From the IMG/VR virus record IMGVR_UViG_2693429700_000004: a stretch of DNA of 12,326 bases. The stretch is one strand, 5' to 3'. Both the position numbers and the translations under genes were made by a program. This DNA is from a virus (Duplodnaviria; Heunggongvirae; Uroviricota; Caudoviricetes). A model generated the notes under the pieces. The model did not search any database and was not told the origin of the DNA. It saw only the letters and a program-made list of their open reading frames with translations. Positions 2,798 to 12,307 of this stretch are shown here, in pieces. Positions within the stretch are counted from its first letter, which is position 1. Every line of letters begins with the position of its first letter.

Positions 2798-3544
2798 ATG
2801 AAAAATATTGCGACAGGCGGTGTTCTTGAACGTATCCGTAAGCTGGCTCCGCAGCATGTAACCGCGCCGTACCGGACAGTGGACGAGTGGCGAGAGTGGC
2901 AGCTTGCAGAAGGGCGAAAACGTAGCGAGGAGATCAACCGCCTGAATCGTCAGTTGCGGGTGGAAAAAATTCTGAATCGCTCAGGCATCCAGCCGTTGCA
3001 TCGTAAATGCTCGTTTGCAAATTACCAGGTGCAGAACGACGGCCAGCGATACGCGTTAAGCCAGGCGAAATCCATCGCCGATGAACTGATGACCGGGGGT
3101 ACAAATTTTGCGTTCAGCGGAAAACCTGGTACCGGGAAGAACCACTTAGCGGCAGCTATCGGAAATCGCCTGCTGAAAGATGGCCAGACAGTGATTGTGG
3201 TTACTGTGGCTGATGTTATGAGTGCCCTGCATGCCAGCTATGACGACGGACAGTCAGGCGAAAAATTTTTGCGGGAACTGTGCGAAGTGGATCTGCTGGT
3301 TCTTGATGAGATTGGCATTCAGCGCGAGACGAAAAACGAGCAGGTGGTACTGCACCAGATTATTGATCGACGGACAGCGTCGATGCGTAGCGTGGGAATG
3401 CTGACAAATCTGAACTATGAGGCCATGAAAACATTGCTCGGTGAGCGGATTATGGATCGCATGACCATGAACGGCGGACGCTGGGTGAATTTTAACTGGG
3501 AGAGCTGGCGTCCGAATGTCGTCCAGCCAGGAATTGCGAAGTAA
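2798..3544 (+). CDS. ydaV: DnaC-like replicative helicase loader (AAA+ ATPase; YdaV-like)
   Basis: 248-aa ORF with Walker [16 protein letters not shown] and Walker B-like LLVLDEIG; sits 6 nt after the initiator gene. Confidence 0.85.
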
Positions 3545-7551: not shown

Positions 7552-7656
7552 ATGTCGGATGATATTTCACTGGCAATGGAAGGTGCGCTGGCTGTTATTG
7601 CTGTTGTGGGCGTTTACTGCCTGGTTGTGTTTTTGATGGATCGACTAGGGAACTGA
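7552..7656 (+). CDS. unannotated mini-ORF, 34-aa hydrophobic peptide (candidate small membrane protein)
   Basis: AAAGGAGGG RBS 6 nt upstream of ATG 7552; MSDDISLAMEGALAVIAVVGVYCLVVFLMDRLGN has an acidic N-terminus then a TM helix. Followed by a perfect 22-bp palindrome at 7665-7686. Confidence 0.4.
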   Translation: MSDDISLAMEGALAVIAVVGVYCLVVFLMDRLGN

Positions 7657-7789
7657 ATTCATTACGATATGGGAATTCCCATATCGGGTAAAAACGGTTT
7701 GCGGTAAAGCGAGAGTTAAGTAGAATTGCTGCGGGTGCTTGAGGCTATCTGCCTCGGGCATGCCACCGTAAGGCAGACAGAGAAAAGCC

Positions 7790-7890
7790 CCAGTTAACAT
7801 TACGCGTCCGGCAAGACGCTTAACATTAATCTGAGGCCATATCTATGCTCTACACACGTAGGTTAGCCTCTTACGGACCGAAAGGTCAAG
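7790..7890 (-). ncRNA. sok: predicted Sok-like antisense RNA region (coordinates approximate)
   Basis: Inferred from hok/mok architecture. Minus-strand TTGACC (complement of 7885-7890) is a possible -35; the mok leader contains hairpins and a direct repeat TTAACATTA. Boundaries are not resolved from sequence. Confidence 0.3.
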
Positions 7891-8051
7891 GAGAAGCAGG
7901 CTATGAAGCAGCAAAAGGCGATGTTAATCGCCCTGATCGTCATCTGTTTAACCGTCATAGTGACGGCACTGGTAACGAGGAAAGACCTCTGCGAGGTACG
8001 AATCCGAACCGGTCAGACGGAGGTCGCTGTCTTCGTAGACTACGAATCTGA
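7845..8051 (+). CDS. mok: Mok-like overlapping reading frame (modulation of killing) of the hok locus
   Basis: 68-aa ORF starting upstream of hok and overlapping it in another frame, the canonical hok/mok arrangement. Confidence 0.55.
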   Translation: MLYTRRLASYGPKGQGEAGYEAAKGDVNRPDRHLFNRHSDGTGNEERPLRGTNPNRSDGGRCLRRLRI

Positions 8052-8058
8052 GAAGTAA
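7903..8058 (+). CDS. hok: Hok/Gef-family type I toxin (HokD/RelF-like), 51 aa
   Basis: Translation MKQQKAMLIALIVICLTVIVTALVTRKDLCEVRIRTGQTEVAVFVDYESEK matches the Hok family as I recall it, nearly identical to HokD/RelF except the C-terminal tail. AAGGAGAAG RBS. Not in the ORF track. Confidence 0.85.
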   Translation: MKQQKAMLIALIVICLTVIVTALVTRKDLCEVRIRTGQTEVAVFVDYESEK

Positions 8059-8125
8059 GAGACCAGGCGGGGGAGTAATCTCCCGCCACCTCTGATGTGT
8101 CAGGCATCCTCAACGCACCCGCACT

Positions 8126-8150
8126 AAACCCGCTTCGGCGGGTTTTTTGT
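8126..8150 (+). terminator. intrinsic terminator ending the hok transcript
   Basis: ACCCGC-TTCG-GCGGGT hairpin followed by TTTTTTG. A second 9-bp stem with GTAA loop (8066-8087) lies just after the hok stop but has no T-run. Confidence 0.6.
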
Positions 8151-8333
8151 TGCGTGCTGAATGCGCAGGGTGAAAAATAACCATATATTTGATTATATAC
8201 ACAACAAAAAATAAAAGTCATTGTACCTGCACATTAAATAATCAAATATACAGCGTGAAATAAATATTTTTCAGATTAATATTTTTGTCTCTATGTGGAT
8301 ATAACCGTTTGTACTTATAAACTCGGAGGCATC

Positions 8334-8546
8334 GTGGAAAAAATAAAGAAACTATTTAGTTGCAAATACGCAGTCATACGTCGTGATGACCTGTCAGTTA
8401 TAGTCGAAATGGATTACTTCCCTGAAACCCCAAAATCAATGATGTATCGTAATGGTCGAAAGGCAATTTTTTTACCGATGAGGGTAAGTGACATTATGGG
8501 AAATGATAAACTGCTGGATGAATTGCGAGTCAGAGCATCCTGTTAG
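8334..8546 (+). CDS. hypothetical protein (70 aa)
   Basis: GTG 8334 preceded by GGAGG 4 nt upstream; the track ORF 8295-8546 is the same frame with an upstream GTG. Follows an AT-rich spacer. Confidence 0.4.
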   Translation: MEKIKKLFSCKYAVIRRDDLSVIVEMDYFPETPKSMMYRNGRKAIFLPMRVSDIMGNDKLLDELRVRASC

Positions 8547-8617: not shown

Positions 8618-9217
8618 ATGGCGCATATACAACTGGTCAAACAAACCTCTTCCGGATTACTTCTCCCGGCGACACCGGAGAGTTGCGATTTTTTGCATCA
8701 AATCAAAATAGGCGAGTGGATACACGCAGACTTTAAGCGTGTGCGTAACTACGCATTCCACAAGCGTTTTTTCAAACTCCTGCAACTGGGATTCGATTAC
8801 TGGACTCCGGTCGGTGGGGCGATCACGCCTCGCGAACGAGAACTGCTGTCTGGTTTCGTTGATTACCTGTGCGAATCAGTTGGTCGGGAACACACGCCAG
8901 CCCTGAGTGATGCCGCAGAGCAATATCTGAATACAGTTGCGACACGCAGAACCCGGGATACGGCATTGTTAAAGTCGTTTGAGGCTTTTCGCGAGTGGGT
9001 AACCATTCAGGCTGGATTTTACACCGAACATTTTTATCCGGACGGTAGCCATGGGCGTCGGGCGAAATCCATCGCTTTTGCGAATATGGACGAAACCGAG
9101 TTTCAGCAGGTTTATAAATCTGTTCTGAATGTGCTGTGGAACTGGATTCTGTTCCGTAAATTTTCCTCTCCGGAACAAGTCGAAAATGTGGCCGCGCAGC
9201 TGCTGGAGTTTGCGTAA
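8618..9217 (+). CDS. DUF1367-family phage protein (YbcN-like, nin region)
   Basis: 199-aa ORF with GGAGA RBS, immediately upstream of and overlapping a YbcO-like gene, as in the DLP12 ybcN-ybcO arrangement. Family call is from recollection and synteny. Confidence 0.55.
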   Translation: MAHIQLVKQTSSGLLLPATPESCDFLHQIKIGEWIHADFKRVRNYAFHKRFFKLLQLGFDYWTPVGGAITPRERELLSGFVDYLCESVGREHTPALSDAAEQYLNTVATRRTRDTALLKSFEAFREWVTIQAGFYTEHFYPDGSHGRRAKSIAFANMDETEFQQVYKSVLNVLWNWILFRKFSSPEQVENVAAQLLEFA

Positions 9218-9507
9218 TGGTGGATTTACGTAAAGCGGCGCGGGGGCAGATGTGCACCGTCAGAATTCCTGGCTACTGCAATCACGATCCGGAAACGTCT
9301 GTGCTGGCGCATTACCGACTGGCGGGAACGTGCGGAACAGCGATAAAGCCACACGATATGCAGGCAGCGATTGCCTGTAGCTCGTGCCACGATTTAATCG
9401 ACGGGCGGGTAAAAACCGGCGATTACACCAAAGAAGAATTACGCCTGATGCATGCAGAAGGTGTTTTTCGCACACAAGAAATCTGGAGAAAGGAGGGATA
9501 TTTATGA
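9217..9507 (+). CDS. ybcO: DUF1364 / YbcO-like Cys/His-rich putative nuclease
   Basis: 96-aa ORF with spaced Cys/His residues (C13, C21, H23, C54, C57, H58); start overlaps the upstream stop (TAATG). Size and position match ybcO. Confidence 0.6.
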   Translation: MVDLRKAARGQMCTVRIPGYCNHDPETSVLAHYRLAGTCGTAIKPHDMQAAIACSSCHDLIDGRVKTGDYTKEELRLMHAEGVFRTQEIWRKEGYL

Positions 9508-10058
9508 TTTACCCAACGAATACAGGAAAAAGCGGAGAACACCTTCGTCTCACCACGCTGGAAAGTGTCTGGATTCAGGGAAAACTACGTATGTGGGGGC
9601 GCTGGTCGTATATTGGCGGCGGTAAGACGGGAAATATGTTTAACCAGTTGCTGACCTCTAAAAAGCTAACAAAAACGGCAATTAATGAGGCGCTCCGGAG
9701 GATGAAAAAAGCAGGTCTGGACAAACCTGAACTTGAGGCTTTTTTGCGGGATATGATCAACGGCAAGCAAAAAAGCTGGCTGGTGCATTGTACTGATGCA
9801 GAGGCGTTATGCATTGATCGGGTGATTAGTGAAGTGCTGGCAGAACACCCAGGATTGATTTGTATCCTCCGGCAAAGATATGAAGGGCGGGGGATGAGTA
9901 AGCGCAAAATGGCTGAATTGCTAAATGATGCACACCCTGAGTGGTGTTTTCGGACGTGCTGCAGTCGGGTAGATGTATGGCTAAATCTTGCTGAATATAT
10001 GCTCTATCTGCCGATGCGTGATGCATTCTCTTCCGGGTATTTAAAAACTGTCTGTTGA
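9504..10058 (+). CDS. late-gene antitermination protein Q-like
   Basis: ATG 9504 with AGGAGGG RBS (track start 9384 overlaps the previous gene and is unlikely). Last nin gene; a strong promoter overlaps its stop and a short terminated leader follows, the pR'/tR' arrangement. Contains a Cys cluster (CFRTCCS). Assignment is mainly positional. Confidence 0.55.
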   Translation: MIYPTNTGKSGEHLRLTTLESVWIQGKLRMWGRWSYIGGGKTGNMFNQLLTSKKLTKTAINEALRRMKKAGLDKPELEAFLRDMINGKQKSWLVHCTDAEALCIDRVISEVLAEHPGLICILRQRYEGRGMSKRKMAELLNDAHPEWCFRTCCSRVDVWLNLAEYMLYLPMRDAFSSGYLKTVC

Positions 10059-10084
10059 CTCAATCTGTTATCCGGGGCTATATT
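10055..10084 (+). promoter_or_regulatory. pR'-like late promoter
   Basis: TTGACT (10055-10060), 18-bp spacer, TATATT (10079-10084); overlaps the stop codon of the Q-like gene. Confidence 0.45.
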
Positions 10085-10146
10085 CCTCACGCGCCAGCAA
10101 AATCTGGCGTCGGGATTAGGAACCCCGGATAGAGACCGCGACAGAC

Positions 10147-10170
10147 ACACGCCGCGAGCGTGTTTTTTAT
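10147..10170 (+). terminator. tR'-like intrinsic terminator about 80 nt downstream of the late promoter
   Basis: ACACGC-CGCGA-GCGTGT hairpin followed by TTTTTTATT. Confidence 0.55.
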
Positions 10171-10331
10171 TGTCGTATGCACGCGCACATCTGAATTATG
10201 GTGGGGCGTATGGGGGAGCTGAAAAGCTCGCCGGTTGGTTTCCCGGTAGTTCCTAACCCTGTACGTCTCACCACCCGATGATTAGGAACCTGACGGTGGT
10301 GATGGTTTAGAAACCACCAGAGGGCGTCATT

Positions 10332-10913
10332 ATGACAACTCAAATTTCTGTTGAAACTCTCTCCCCGATCACCCATAACCAGATTCCTGTTATTACCACC
10401 GAACTTTTGGCGCAGTTGTACGGTGCTGGAGTTAAGAACATTCAAAATAACTACGCCAGAAATGCTGAGCGCTTTATTGAAGGAAAGCATTTTTTCAAAG
10501 TGGCTGGCGATGCCCTGAAAAATTTGCGGGTAGCTTTAAACTACTCACAAAATTTGCAACCATCTTTAAGAGGGTTACAAATTTCCCCGAAAGCCCGCTC
10601 CCTCATCCTCTGGACAGAACGCGGAGCAGCCCGTCATGCCAAAATGCTGGAAACCGATCAGGCGTGGGATGTGTTCGAAAAGCTGGAAGACTGCTATTTC
10701 AGACAAAAGGATCCGTCAGCGCCAGTTTCATGCCAGAAAAGTTACGACACGCGAGTTCTCTGTTATCAGAGAGGCGGTGTCACTGTTTCCACAATTCAGT
10801 TACGGGATGATGATATTGTTATTTCCCTTGAGTCATGGCTGGAACTGGCGAGAGCCAATGGTTGGTTTGTTGTTCGCAGAGATAAACTGGTGGAAAGGTT
10901 GATGCAGCTTTAA
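10332..10913 (+). CDS. ORF6N-domain (antirepressor-like) protein
   Basis: 193-aa ORF with AGAGGG RBS; N-terminal segment TELLAQLYGAGVKNIQNNYARNAERFIEGKHFFKV resembles the ORF6N/antirepressor N-domain as I recall it. Confidence 0.55.
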   Translation: MTTQISVETLSPITHNQIPVITTELLAQLYGAGVKNIQNNYARNAERFIEGKHFFKVAGDALKNLRVALNYSQNLQPSLRGLQISPKARSLILWTERGAARHAKMLETDQAWDVFEKLEDCYFRQKDPSAPVSCQKSYDTRVLCYQRGGVTVSTIQLRDDDIVISLESWLELARANGWFVVRRDKLVERLMQL

Positions 10914-12231: not shown

Positions 12232-12307
12232 GGCCCTTTAGCTCAGTGGTGAGAGCGAGCGACTCATAATCGCCAGGTCGCTGGTTCAAATCCAGCAAGG
12301 GCCACCA
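12232..12307 (+). tRNA. tRNA with CAU anticodon, ileX/ileY-like (tRNA-Ile2, lysidine) and diverged from the host copies; tRNA-Met not formally excluded
   Basis: 76-nt cloverleaf: acceptor stem GGCCCTT/AAGGGCC, D-loop AGCTCAGTGG, anticodon loop CTCATAA, T-arm GGTTCAAATCC, encoded CCA end. Resembles E. coli ileX/ileY as I recall it, with compensatory stem changes. Confidence 0.85.

Follow-up and report, generated by a model that had tools for sequence, protein, structure and literature searches.

The window, that is the whole stretch of 12,326 nucleotides analysed here (IMG/VR virus record IMGVR_UViG_2693429700_000004), very probably carries, in the nin region of a Rac/Qin-like lambdoid prophage, a self-contained hok/mok/sok type I toxin-antitoxin cassette that is intact, belongs to the hokW/hokD lineage and brings its own promoter and terminator. 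The cassette spans positions 7699-8151, and all the family-defining sequence elements that were tested are present. In a cmscan of the whole window, the Rfam family RF01794 'sok', which is a model of the hok leader, matches positions 7733-7905 with 105 bits against a gathering score of 59 (E-value 1.6e-23), and the match covers the full model (positions 1-157 of 157). The locus is already known, being an allele of hokW-sokW, which has been named and studied by experiment, and it lies in its usual genomic place. A first-pass annotation, made from the sequence alone, had proposed a complete hok/mok/sok-type locus embedded in the nin region at 7780-8150. The sequence elements, Pfam, Rfam and the folds bear out the completeness of the locus. 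The proposed span does hold cassette elements, but its start lies about 50-80 nt too far to the right and cuts off the promoter and the tac element.

A chromosomal prophage of E. coli Z1323CEC0019 (the sister genome) matches the window at 99.95% identity, and its annotation, together with PHROGs, gave the gene order. The left part encodes cI/cro-like regulators, YdaT and a replication protein, followed by a DnaC-like loader (2798-3544). Between this loader and hok are found DUF1627, DUF977, a methyltransferase, a DUF551 protein and a 34-aa ORF. Downstream of hok come a rem-like ORF (8334-8546), a NinB/Orf-like gene (8618-9217), a DUF1364/HNH gene and a Q-like antiterminator (9504-10058), and beyond the latter an isrK/C4-type RNA module, an anti-repressor and a tRNA. 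The nin placement given by the first-pass annotation is thus confirmed by the loader on one side and by the NinB- and Q-like genes on the other. This placement is standard for the lineage, being shared by hokD of the K-12 Qin prophage, mok/hok of a Rac-like phage and a hokD-type copy of E. coli ECO2947. The prophage appears degraded at its left end: the end of an IS1203 occupies positions 1-141. The lysis genes of the sister genome are broken, and its prophage contains pseudogenes. More generally, hok-like matches were found in 4725 of 5426 complete E. coli genomes, at a median of 2 places per genome and up to 10, and the full-length version is carried by 143 complete E. coli genomes.

Genes and RNA elements of the cassette

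The toxin gene hok (7903-8058, plus strand) encodes a protein of 51 aa, MKQQKAMLIALIVICLTVIVTALVTRKDLCEVRIRTGQTEVAVFVDYESEK, and is preceded by a Shine-Dalgarno (SD) sequence AGGAG (7889-7893, plus strand), read from the sequence and conserved in the alignment described below. The protein matches the Pfam profile HOK_GEF (PF01848) over its full length (positions 1-42 of 42; E-value 4.3e-23, 81 bits against a cut-off of 22), as well as PHROG 251 'MokW-like host killing' (1e-32), and the RefSeq name of the identical product is Hok/Gef family protein (WP_000813258.1). Since RefSeq gives the Hok CDS only, we advise that hok, mok and sok all be labelled here. Hok is 100% identical (51/51 residues) to HokW of phage 933W/Sp5. 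By comparison, 47 of the 51 residues are shared with the K-12-type HokD (...AVFTAYEPEE), and the four differences all fall in the C-terminal tail, which reads VDYESEK here and TAYEPEE in K-12. The frame had been described as close to HokD with another tail. The closeness and the confinement of the differences to the tail hold, but the tail is not new, being exactly that of HokW of phage 933W. A novel HokD variant was therefore rejected, the coding region being of the hokW type.

The overlapping mok frame that had been reported was found at 7845-8051 (plus strand; 68 codons, 68 aa), in the +1 frame relative to hok. It starts 58 nt upstream of hok, crosses both the hok SD (7889-7893) and the hok ATG (7903) and stops 7 nt before the hok stop. 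Its own SD, GAGG (7833-7836, plus strand), lies 8 nt upstream of the mok ATG (7845), inside the region complementary to Sok. Since mok still reads over the hok start, we infer that mok-hok translational coupling is formally intact.

For comparison, 47 related loci were retrieved by scanning species-representative genomes (Escherichia, Shigella, Kluyvera, Photorhabdus, Pantoea, Citrobacter and others). The named helices were counted on an alignment of 33 sequences, made up of 30 of these loci plus the window, 933W and phage Rac. The mok SD is invariant in all 33.

A putative hok promoter is located at 7699-7726 on the plus strand, with a -35 box TTGCGG (7699-7704), a 16-nt spacer and a -10 box TAGAAT (7721-7726). 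In the same alignment columns, a TAGAAT, TATAAT or TACAAT hexamer occurs in most, not all, hok loci of several genera. The hok mRNA has its 5' end at about 7731-7733, and the Rfam model starts at 7733, 7 nt downstream of the hok -10 box. This 5' end is occupied by the translational activator (tac) element, GCGGGUGCUUGAGG (7731-7744, plus strand), which pairs with the fold-back inhibitory (fbi) element, CCUCAACGCACCCGC (8108-8122, plus strand). The tac-fbi helix comprises 14 pairs, is obtained in both the MFE and the centroid folds of the full-length mRNA, and its two arms were also recovered as inverted repeats I3 and I5. The mRNA as a whole (7733-8150, 418 nt) folds with -174.7 kcal/mol (z -6.75), a stability equalled by none of 100 shuffles.

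The hok leader (7733-7905, plus strand), full length with respect to RF01794, contains the ucb or anti-SD box AAGCCCC (7785-7791, plus strand), which is invariant among hokD/hokW-type loci and has two alternative partners, tac or the mok SD. In the full-length MFE fold, its GCCCC part (7787-7791) stands opposite GAGGC (7833-7837), and four pairs (G7787-C7837, C7788-G7836, C7789-G7835 and C7791-G7833) keep the mok SD hidden. In the Rfam consensus structure aligned to the window, the same box closes hairpin 1 with the 5' GGGUGCUU. Since the box pairs with the mok SD in the fold and with the 5' end in the Rfam consensus, the alternative pairings are encoded in the sequence. When the 3' end was deleted in silico, the 5' end of the mRNA refolded locally. 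The thermodynamic fold of this 3'-truncated mRNA gave a local tac hairpin and not the textbook tac/ucb stem; hence, the open form draws its support from the Rfam consensus structure rather than from our own fold.

Right after the hok stop, the 9-bp stem with a GTAA loop noticed in the first reading was found at 8066-8087 (plus strand; arms 8066-8074 and 8079-8087). It includes one G-U pair, has a GUAA loop in the RNA and folds with -19.3 kcal/mol (z -3.5). By analogy with the 3' stem-loop of R1 hok, for which a protective role is described (PMC9841398), it is probably the last stem-loop of the 3'-processed, truncated mRNA and would shield it from exonucleases. The strong intrinsic terminator reported earlier is present as well (8126-8151, plus strand): a stem-loop at 8126-8145, AAACCCGCTTCGGCGGGTTT, is followed by a T run. 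This terminator is common to K-12 hokD and pPE4, and is absent from 933W hokW.

Conservation of pairing is marked in the alignment. The tac-fbi helix was delimited by explicit pairs on the alignment, a blanket RNAduplex of 5' against 3' flanks being too greedy. Its core pairs are standard in 32-33 of the 33 sequences, and a compensatory switch between UA (19 loci) and CG (11 loci) was observed across genera at alignment columns 43/447. The clean covariation count is that of the upper 6-8 tac-fbi pairs only, and the 12-13 apparently unpaired cells of the lower helix are an artefact, since a 1-nt bulge in the E. coli fbi shifts the register of the Photorhabdus rows. The pairs of the 3' stem-loop are kept in 95-98% of cells over the 33 loci, with one pair alternating between AU and GC. 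The whole structure is 83.8% paired against at most 45% in every slid control.

On the minus strand, an antisense RNA Sok of about 71 nt is predicted at 7783-7853, with coordinates transferred from the sokW misc_RNA of 933W, a 71-nt RNA whose 5' end lies 8 nt inside mokW. The predicted Sok consists of a single-stranded 5' tail over the mok ATG, a 24-bp hairpin and then a U-rich tail, CUUUUCUCU. The structured leader with direct repeats and hairpins of the first reading is supported by the Rfam match and by the repeats themselves, TTAACATTA at 7794 and 7820, which are the two arms of one long Sok/sokT hairpin. This hairpin has a 16-nt insertion relative to the Rfam consensus. It folds with -30.4 kcal/mol on the minus strand (z -4.45) and with -18.9 kcal/mol on the plus strand, that is 11.5 kcal/mol apart, because G-U pairs form on the minus strand where the plus strand has two C-A/A-C mismatches. 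Such a bias towards the minus strand marks a structure under selection in the antisense transcript. The variability of the Sok 5' tail argues against cross-talk between hok-like loci.

A putative sok promoter is found at 7860-7889 on the minus strand, with a -35 box TTGACC (7889-7884), an 18-nt spacer and a -10 box TAACCT (7865-7860). The -10 box is identical to that of sokW, but the 933W promoter has a -35 box TTGCCT and a 17-nt spacer. Mutation of the sokW -10 region abolished antitoxin activity (PMC8621323), and the sequence of the mutagenic primer YO-421 suggests that the mutated site was the TAACCT hexamer. A consensus promoter scan picked up neither the hok nor the sok promoter. The hok promoter was missed because its -35 box matches the consensus at only three of six positions. 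Since the sok -10 box is the very hexamer presumably mutated in the sokW experiments, the negative scan was not counted as absence of a promoter. As regards function, the weak points of the locus are a sok promoter unlike the validated one and hok and sok promoters too weak for a consensus scan.

Relationships with named hok loci and origin of the mok frame

The closest named system is hokW-mokW-sokW of 933W/Sp5 (AF125520). Besides the identical Hok protein, there is a single synonymous difference in the ORF, and 933W annotates hokW, mokW and sokW at matching positions. Across window positions 7689-8125, from the promoter region to fbi, the DNA identity with 933W, VT2-Sakai and other Stx phages of the phage collection is about 95%. 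The sok -10 box, the Sok hairpin, tac, ucb, the mok SD, the 3' stem-loop and fbi are all shared with 933W. However, 933W hokW is located at the far end of the record, in a late, att-proximal position beside L0136-L0141, whereas the window copy lies in the nin region. In 933W, mokW is in frame and forms a 70-aa Mok-Hok extension, whereas mok of the window is +1 out of frame, and the Sok 5' tail differs between them at about 6 of 17 positions. Because of these differences in mok frame, position and Sok 5' tail, the window locus is, on sequence comparison, a recombinant relative of hokW, distinct from the 933W/Sp5 hokW locus itself. It is also complete at both ends and has kept a canonical terminator, unlike 933W hokW.

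The hokD gene (relF) of the K-12 Qin prophage occupies the same niche, upstream of rem and of the Q-like ydfT and co-directional with both, and the 3' stem-loop, fbi and terminator are conserved in addition to the coding region. However, relBE replaces everything upstream of the hok SD in K-12, so that the promoter, tac, the mok start and sok are gone there, whereas the window keeps them all. Comparison with K-12 hokD had been suggested as a way of judging whether the locus is intact, and it gives a clear answer: K-12 homology begins only at the hok SD, and the window copy is the complete one. Over the whole length of the region, a Rac-like phage record is 93% identical. In the Rac-like phage from E. 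coli 442/2 (MN652886), the mok/hok locus lies between ydaW and rem-irsA-ybcO-Q, with ydaU/V/W upstream and rem, DUF1367 (irsA), DUF1364 and Q downstream, and its geometry is identical (mok of 207 nt, starting 58 nt before hok and ending 7 nt before the hok stop). In E. coli ECO2947, a hokD-type copy of this same geometry lies between DUF551 and RusA/Q, and its leader is that of the window from 7785 to past the hok start, including the patch described below. The MN652886 and ECO2947 copies differ from the window in having HokD-type tails and other promoter-proximal flanks.

The founding member of the family, hok/sok (parB) of plasmid R1, follows the same logic of tac/fbi, ucb, mok coupling, Sok and 3' processing (PMC9841398). 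It is the locus on which the Rfam family that matches the window was built. HokW is 44% identical to R1 Hok, and the window copy is carried by a chromosomal prophage whereas R1 hok/sok is carried by a plasmid. The wider significance of the locus is limited: intact hok/sok modules, beyond the truncated K-12 hokD, are carried along in the nin region of Rac/Qin-like prophages, in pathogenic as well as commensal E. coli, and their parts (coding tail, leader patches, Sok recognition tail and terminator) are shuffled between hok copies. Furthermore, the cassette is worth remembering when this prophage region is cloned or deleted.

The mok start of 933W and most relatives is located 57 nt upstream of hok and is in frame with it, so that Mok is an N-terminally extended Hok there, whereas in the window it lies at 58 nt and in the +1 frame. 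The shift was traced to a 3-nt patch (G7876, A7877 and an extra T7886) in a 12-nt GAAA-tetraloop hairpin (7876-7887, plus strand), which reads GACCGAAAGGUC here instead of UGCCGAAAGGCA. The RNA hairpin is GACC-GAAA-GGUC in the window and UGCC-GAAA-GGCA at the same position in the near-identical sister genome and in 933W. The patch is compensated, the stem of the hairpin staying intact, and it accounts for three of the six differences between the window and the sister genome over 12.2 kb. On the opposite strand, it changes the -35 box and the spacer of sok. Its probable origin is gene conversion over a short tract, with another hok copy as the donor.

The out-of-frame geometry is not restricted to the window. 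The 48 bases that include the patch were matched at at least 99% identity in 454 of the complete E. coli records searched. A mok start at -58 was found in 7 of the 38 distinct loci of the species-representative genome scan, Kluyvera loci among them. For instance, the -58 out-of-frame geometry occurs in a locus of Kluyvera cryocrescens (L016) with a leader sequence unlike that of the window. Moreover, the phage Rac record MN652886 annotates a mok of 207 nt whose end lies 7 nt short of the hok stop. On this distribution (MN652886, 7/38 loci, 454 E. coli records), the idea that the mok frameshift is an inactivating lesion was rejected. Likewise, the disrupted mok/hok coupling that, according to the first-pass annotation, would make hok non-expressible does not apply here, as the out-of-frame mok spans both the ribosome-binding site and the start codon of hok. 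The occurrence of in-frame and out-of-frame mok in otherwise identical prophages amounts to a small natural experiment, which supports the view that translation of mok matters and that the Mok peptide does not.

Functional status and proposed mechanism of control

Judging from its sequence, the cassette is complete and probably functional. According to the reverse reading, the locus would be a decayed, non-functional relic, as several hok loci on the K-12 chromosome are, in which the mok frameshift or the altered sok and hok promoters leave hok unexpressed or uncontrolled. Such decay has a precedent in K-12 hokD, which has lost its whole 5' regulatory half and shows homology only from the hok SD; mok of the window is indeed frameshifted relative to 933W mokW, and the surrounding prophage contains an IS element, with pseudogenes in the sister genome. 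However, every regulatory element of the window copy is present and complementary to its partner, the frameshifted mok covers the hok start and is open for 68 codons, and within its hairpin the patch is compensated. The 48-bp segment is matched at at least 99% in 454 E. coli records and the out-of-frame -58 start recurs in 7 of 38 distinct loci. Furthermore, without control hok would kill its carrier and be lost. A relic is thus very improbable.

For the family, published work describes a full-length mRNA closed by tac/fbi, in which the mok SD is hidden by an upstream complementary box (PMC9841398). Trimming of the 3' end lets tac pair with this box and frees the mok SD; Sok binds this opened form, and the final 3' stem-loop protects the trimmed RNA (PMC9841398). 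Within the lineage, experiments on hokW-sokW of the Sakai prophage Sp5 have established it as a type I TA system (Takada et al. 2021, PMC8621323). HokW arrests growth; it is neutralised by sokW under the latter's own promoter, and the neutralisation depends in part on RNase III and Hfq (PMC8621323). Mitomycin C treatment leads, in a RecA-dependent manner, to loss of sokW and to accumulation of HokW in the inner membrane, and deletion of hokW-sokW delays growth arrest and halves phage release (PMC8621323). Given the identity of the toxin with HokW, toxicity and antisense control can be expected of the window copy by analogy.

The mechanism that we propose combines the work on R1 hok/sok and Sp5 hokW-sokW with the elements found here. 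The sense promoter would produce a stable mRNA of about 418 nt, closed by tac-fbi and with its mok ribosome-binding site hidden by the GCCCC box. In this closed form, the full-length mRNA would be neither translated nor bound by Sok. Slow trimming of the 3' end would then remove fbi, tac would pair with the GCCCC box and the mok site would open. Ribosomes translating mok would run over the hok start and thereby allow synthesis of Hok. As long as it is made, the short-lived Sok would pair with the mok start region, causing a block and cleavage of the duplex. If the supply of Sok stops, the 51-aa Hok would enter the inner membrane, and the cell would be killed or lysed.

Possible roles in the prophage

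The direct experiments on the identical Hok protein point to a help in lysis and phage release at induction (PMC8621323). By analogy with HokW in Sp5, Hok of the window may be released on prophage induction and advance lysis and phage release, a role that we put forward tentatively as the likeliest of those considered. It may no longer apply in this host, since the left end of the prophage is degraded and the lysis genes of the sister genome are broken. Given the IS1203 end found here and these broken lysis genes, the module may be no more than a selfish element that survives while the prophage around it decays.

The cassette could also be mainly an addiction module, penalising loss or excision of the prophage by post-segregational killing as plasmid R1 hok/sok does. 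The canonical architecture, with its short antisense RNA and a toxin mRNA that is both structured and stable, fits such a function, 933W annotates hokW as 'prophage maintenance' and hok copies persist in cryptic prophages such as Qin. However, deletion in Sp5 had no growth phenotype, the measured effect being on induction and lysis (PMC8621323), and, with a median of 2 hok-like places per cell and as many as 10, cross-protection by Sok could blunt the penalty, although the variable Sok 5' tail speaks against it. On annotation and analogy, addiction is possible but rather unlikely as the main role. Defence genes are common in prophage nin regions and morons. As an abortive infection system, the cassette would respond to a lytic phage such as T4 that stops host transcription: Sok would decay and Hok would kill the cell before the invader matures. 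With R1 hok/sok on a high-copy plasmid, the plating efficiency of T4 was indeed lowered by 42% and the size of plaques by about 85% (cited in PMC8621323), but the effect so reported is a small one, seen at high copy number. None of the PADLOC defence models matched Hok, Mok, the upstream 34-aa ORF or Rem. A defensive role appears improbable.

To return to release of Hok on induction, its trigger may lie in transcription of the prophage itself. Since the cassette has the same orientation as the early rightward operon in which it lies, sense transcription could read through it on induction, colliding with the convergent sok promoter and flooding the cell with Sok targets. We regard this as speculative and on the whole unlikely. 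If true, it would explain the RecA- and induction-dependent disappearance of Sok that releases Hok, and the module would be an induction-wired auxiliary lysis timer, neither addiction nor defence. The near-identical prophage pair that differs by the patch, and hence by the mok frame and the sok promoter (-35 TTGCCT with a 17-nt spacer versus TTGACC with 18 nt), offers a ready-made comparison of timing. In all six of the phage contexts examined, hok is co-directional with the upstream phage genes.

Short-range divergence in the hok leader

Over 12.2 kb, the window and the sister E. coli genome (NZ_CP148401.1), whose chromosome carries a near-identical prophage, differ by a total of 4 mismatches and 2 gaps. 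Three of these differences are grouped within a single GAAA-tetraloop hairpin of the hok leader (7876-7887). The stem stays paired through compensation, the reading frame of mok is switched, and sok has a different -35 box and spacer. Since the state of the hairpin found in the window also occurs in hokD-type loci (relatives sharing the HokD tail), sequence comparison suggests a short gene conversion between hok copies as the origin of this patch.

Another segment of the leader, located at 7837-7853, is the counterpart of the single-stranded 5' tail of the antisense RNA Sok and coincides with the mok start. Among hokD/hokW-type loci, no other part of the leader varies as much: 12 of the 17 columns of this segment vary, versus 0-1 variable columns in the regulatory elements tac, ucb and mok SD. 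Judging from the alignment, this variability is consistent with antisense specificities that have diverged between the several copies of hok present in a genome.

Sequences bordering hok loci

In the Stx2 phage 933W, the homology of hokW to other hok loci ends directly after the fbi element (1936-2000 of locus L001). Since no terminator directly follows this fbi and the next one is located downstream of the YgiW-like gene L0136, the 3' end of the hokW mRNA of Stx phages may differ from that of the canonical hok mRNA.

Immediately upstream of the hok cassette of the window, a small ORF (7552-7656, + strand) encodes a hydrophobic product of 34 aa, MSDDISLAMEGALAVIAVVGVYCLVVFLMDRLGN, recorded in RefSeq as a hypothetical protein (WP_001278450.1). 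Searches against Pfam, PHROG and PADLOC gave no match for this product, which may be a small membrane protein. Between this ORF and the hok promoter lies a perfect palindrome of 22 bp, CGATATGGGAATTCCCATATCG (7665-7686), which occurs once in the window, none being expected by chance. It is followed by no T run on either strand and, according to sequence comparison, is absent from the corresponding position of 933W and pPE4.

The latter record (PP818812.1), titled 'Actinobacillus phage vB_Apl-pPE4', shows 92-93% identity to the E. coli Rac-like early region of the window. Furthermore, short contigs (a few hundred bases) from Acinetobacter and Xanthomonas assemblies carry hok (loci L017 and L025). 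All these records are likely to result from host mislabelling or contamination by E. coli DNA.

Downstream modules and state of the prophage

Rfam matches to isrK (69 bits), the C4 antisense RNA (67 bits) and the C4 a1/b1 target (48 bits) are located at 10078-10278, immediately 5' of an anti-repressor gene (10332-10913). Together, they look like a c4-ant immunity module of the P1/P7 style, downstream of the Q-like antiterminator gene (9504-10058). Further downstream, ARAGORN assigns a tRNA with a CAT anticodon (12232-12307, + strand) to Met, while RefSeq labels its sister-genome copy tRNA-Ile; there, this tRNA heads a tRNA cluster that precedes the holin gene.

Positions 1-141 of the window match the end of a copy of IS1203 (IS3 family). 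Since the prophage of the sister genome is flanked by IS1203 copies on both sides and has broken lysis genes, the prophage is probably defective.
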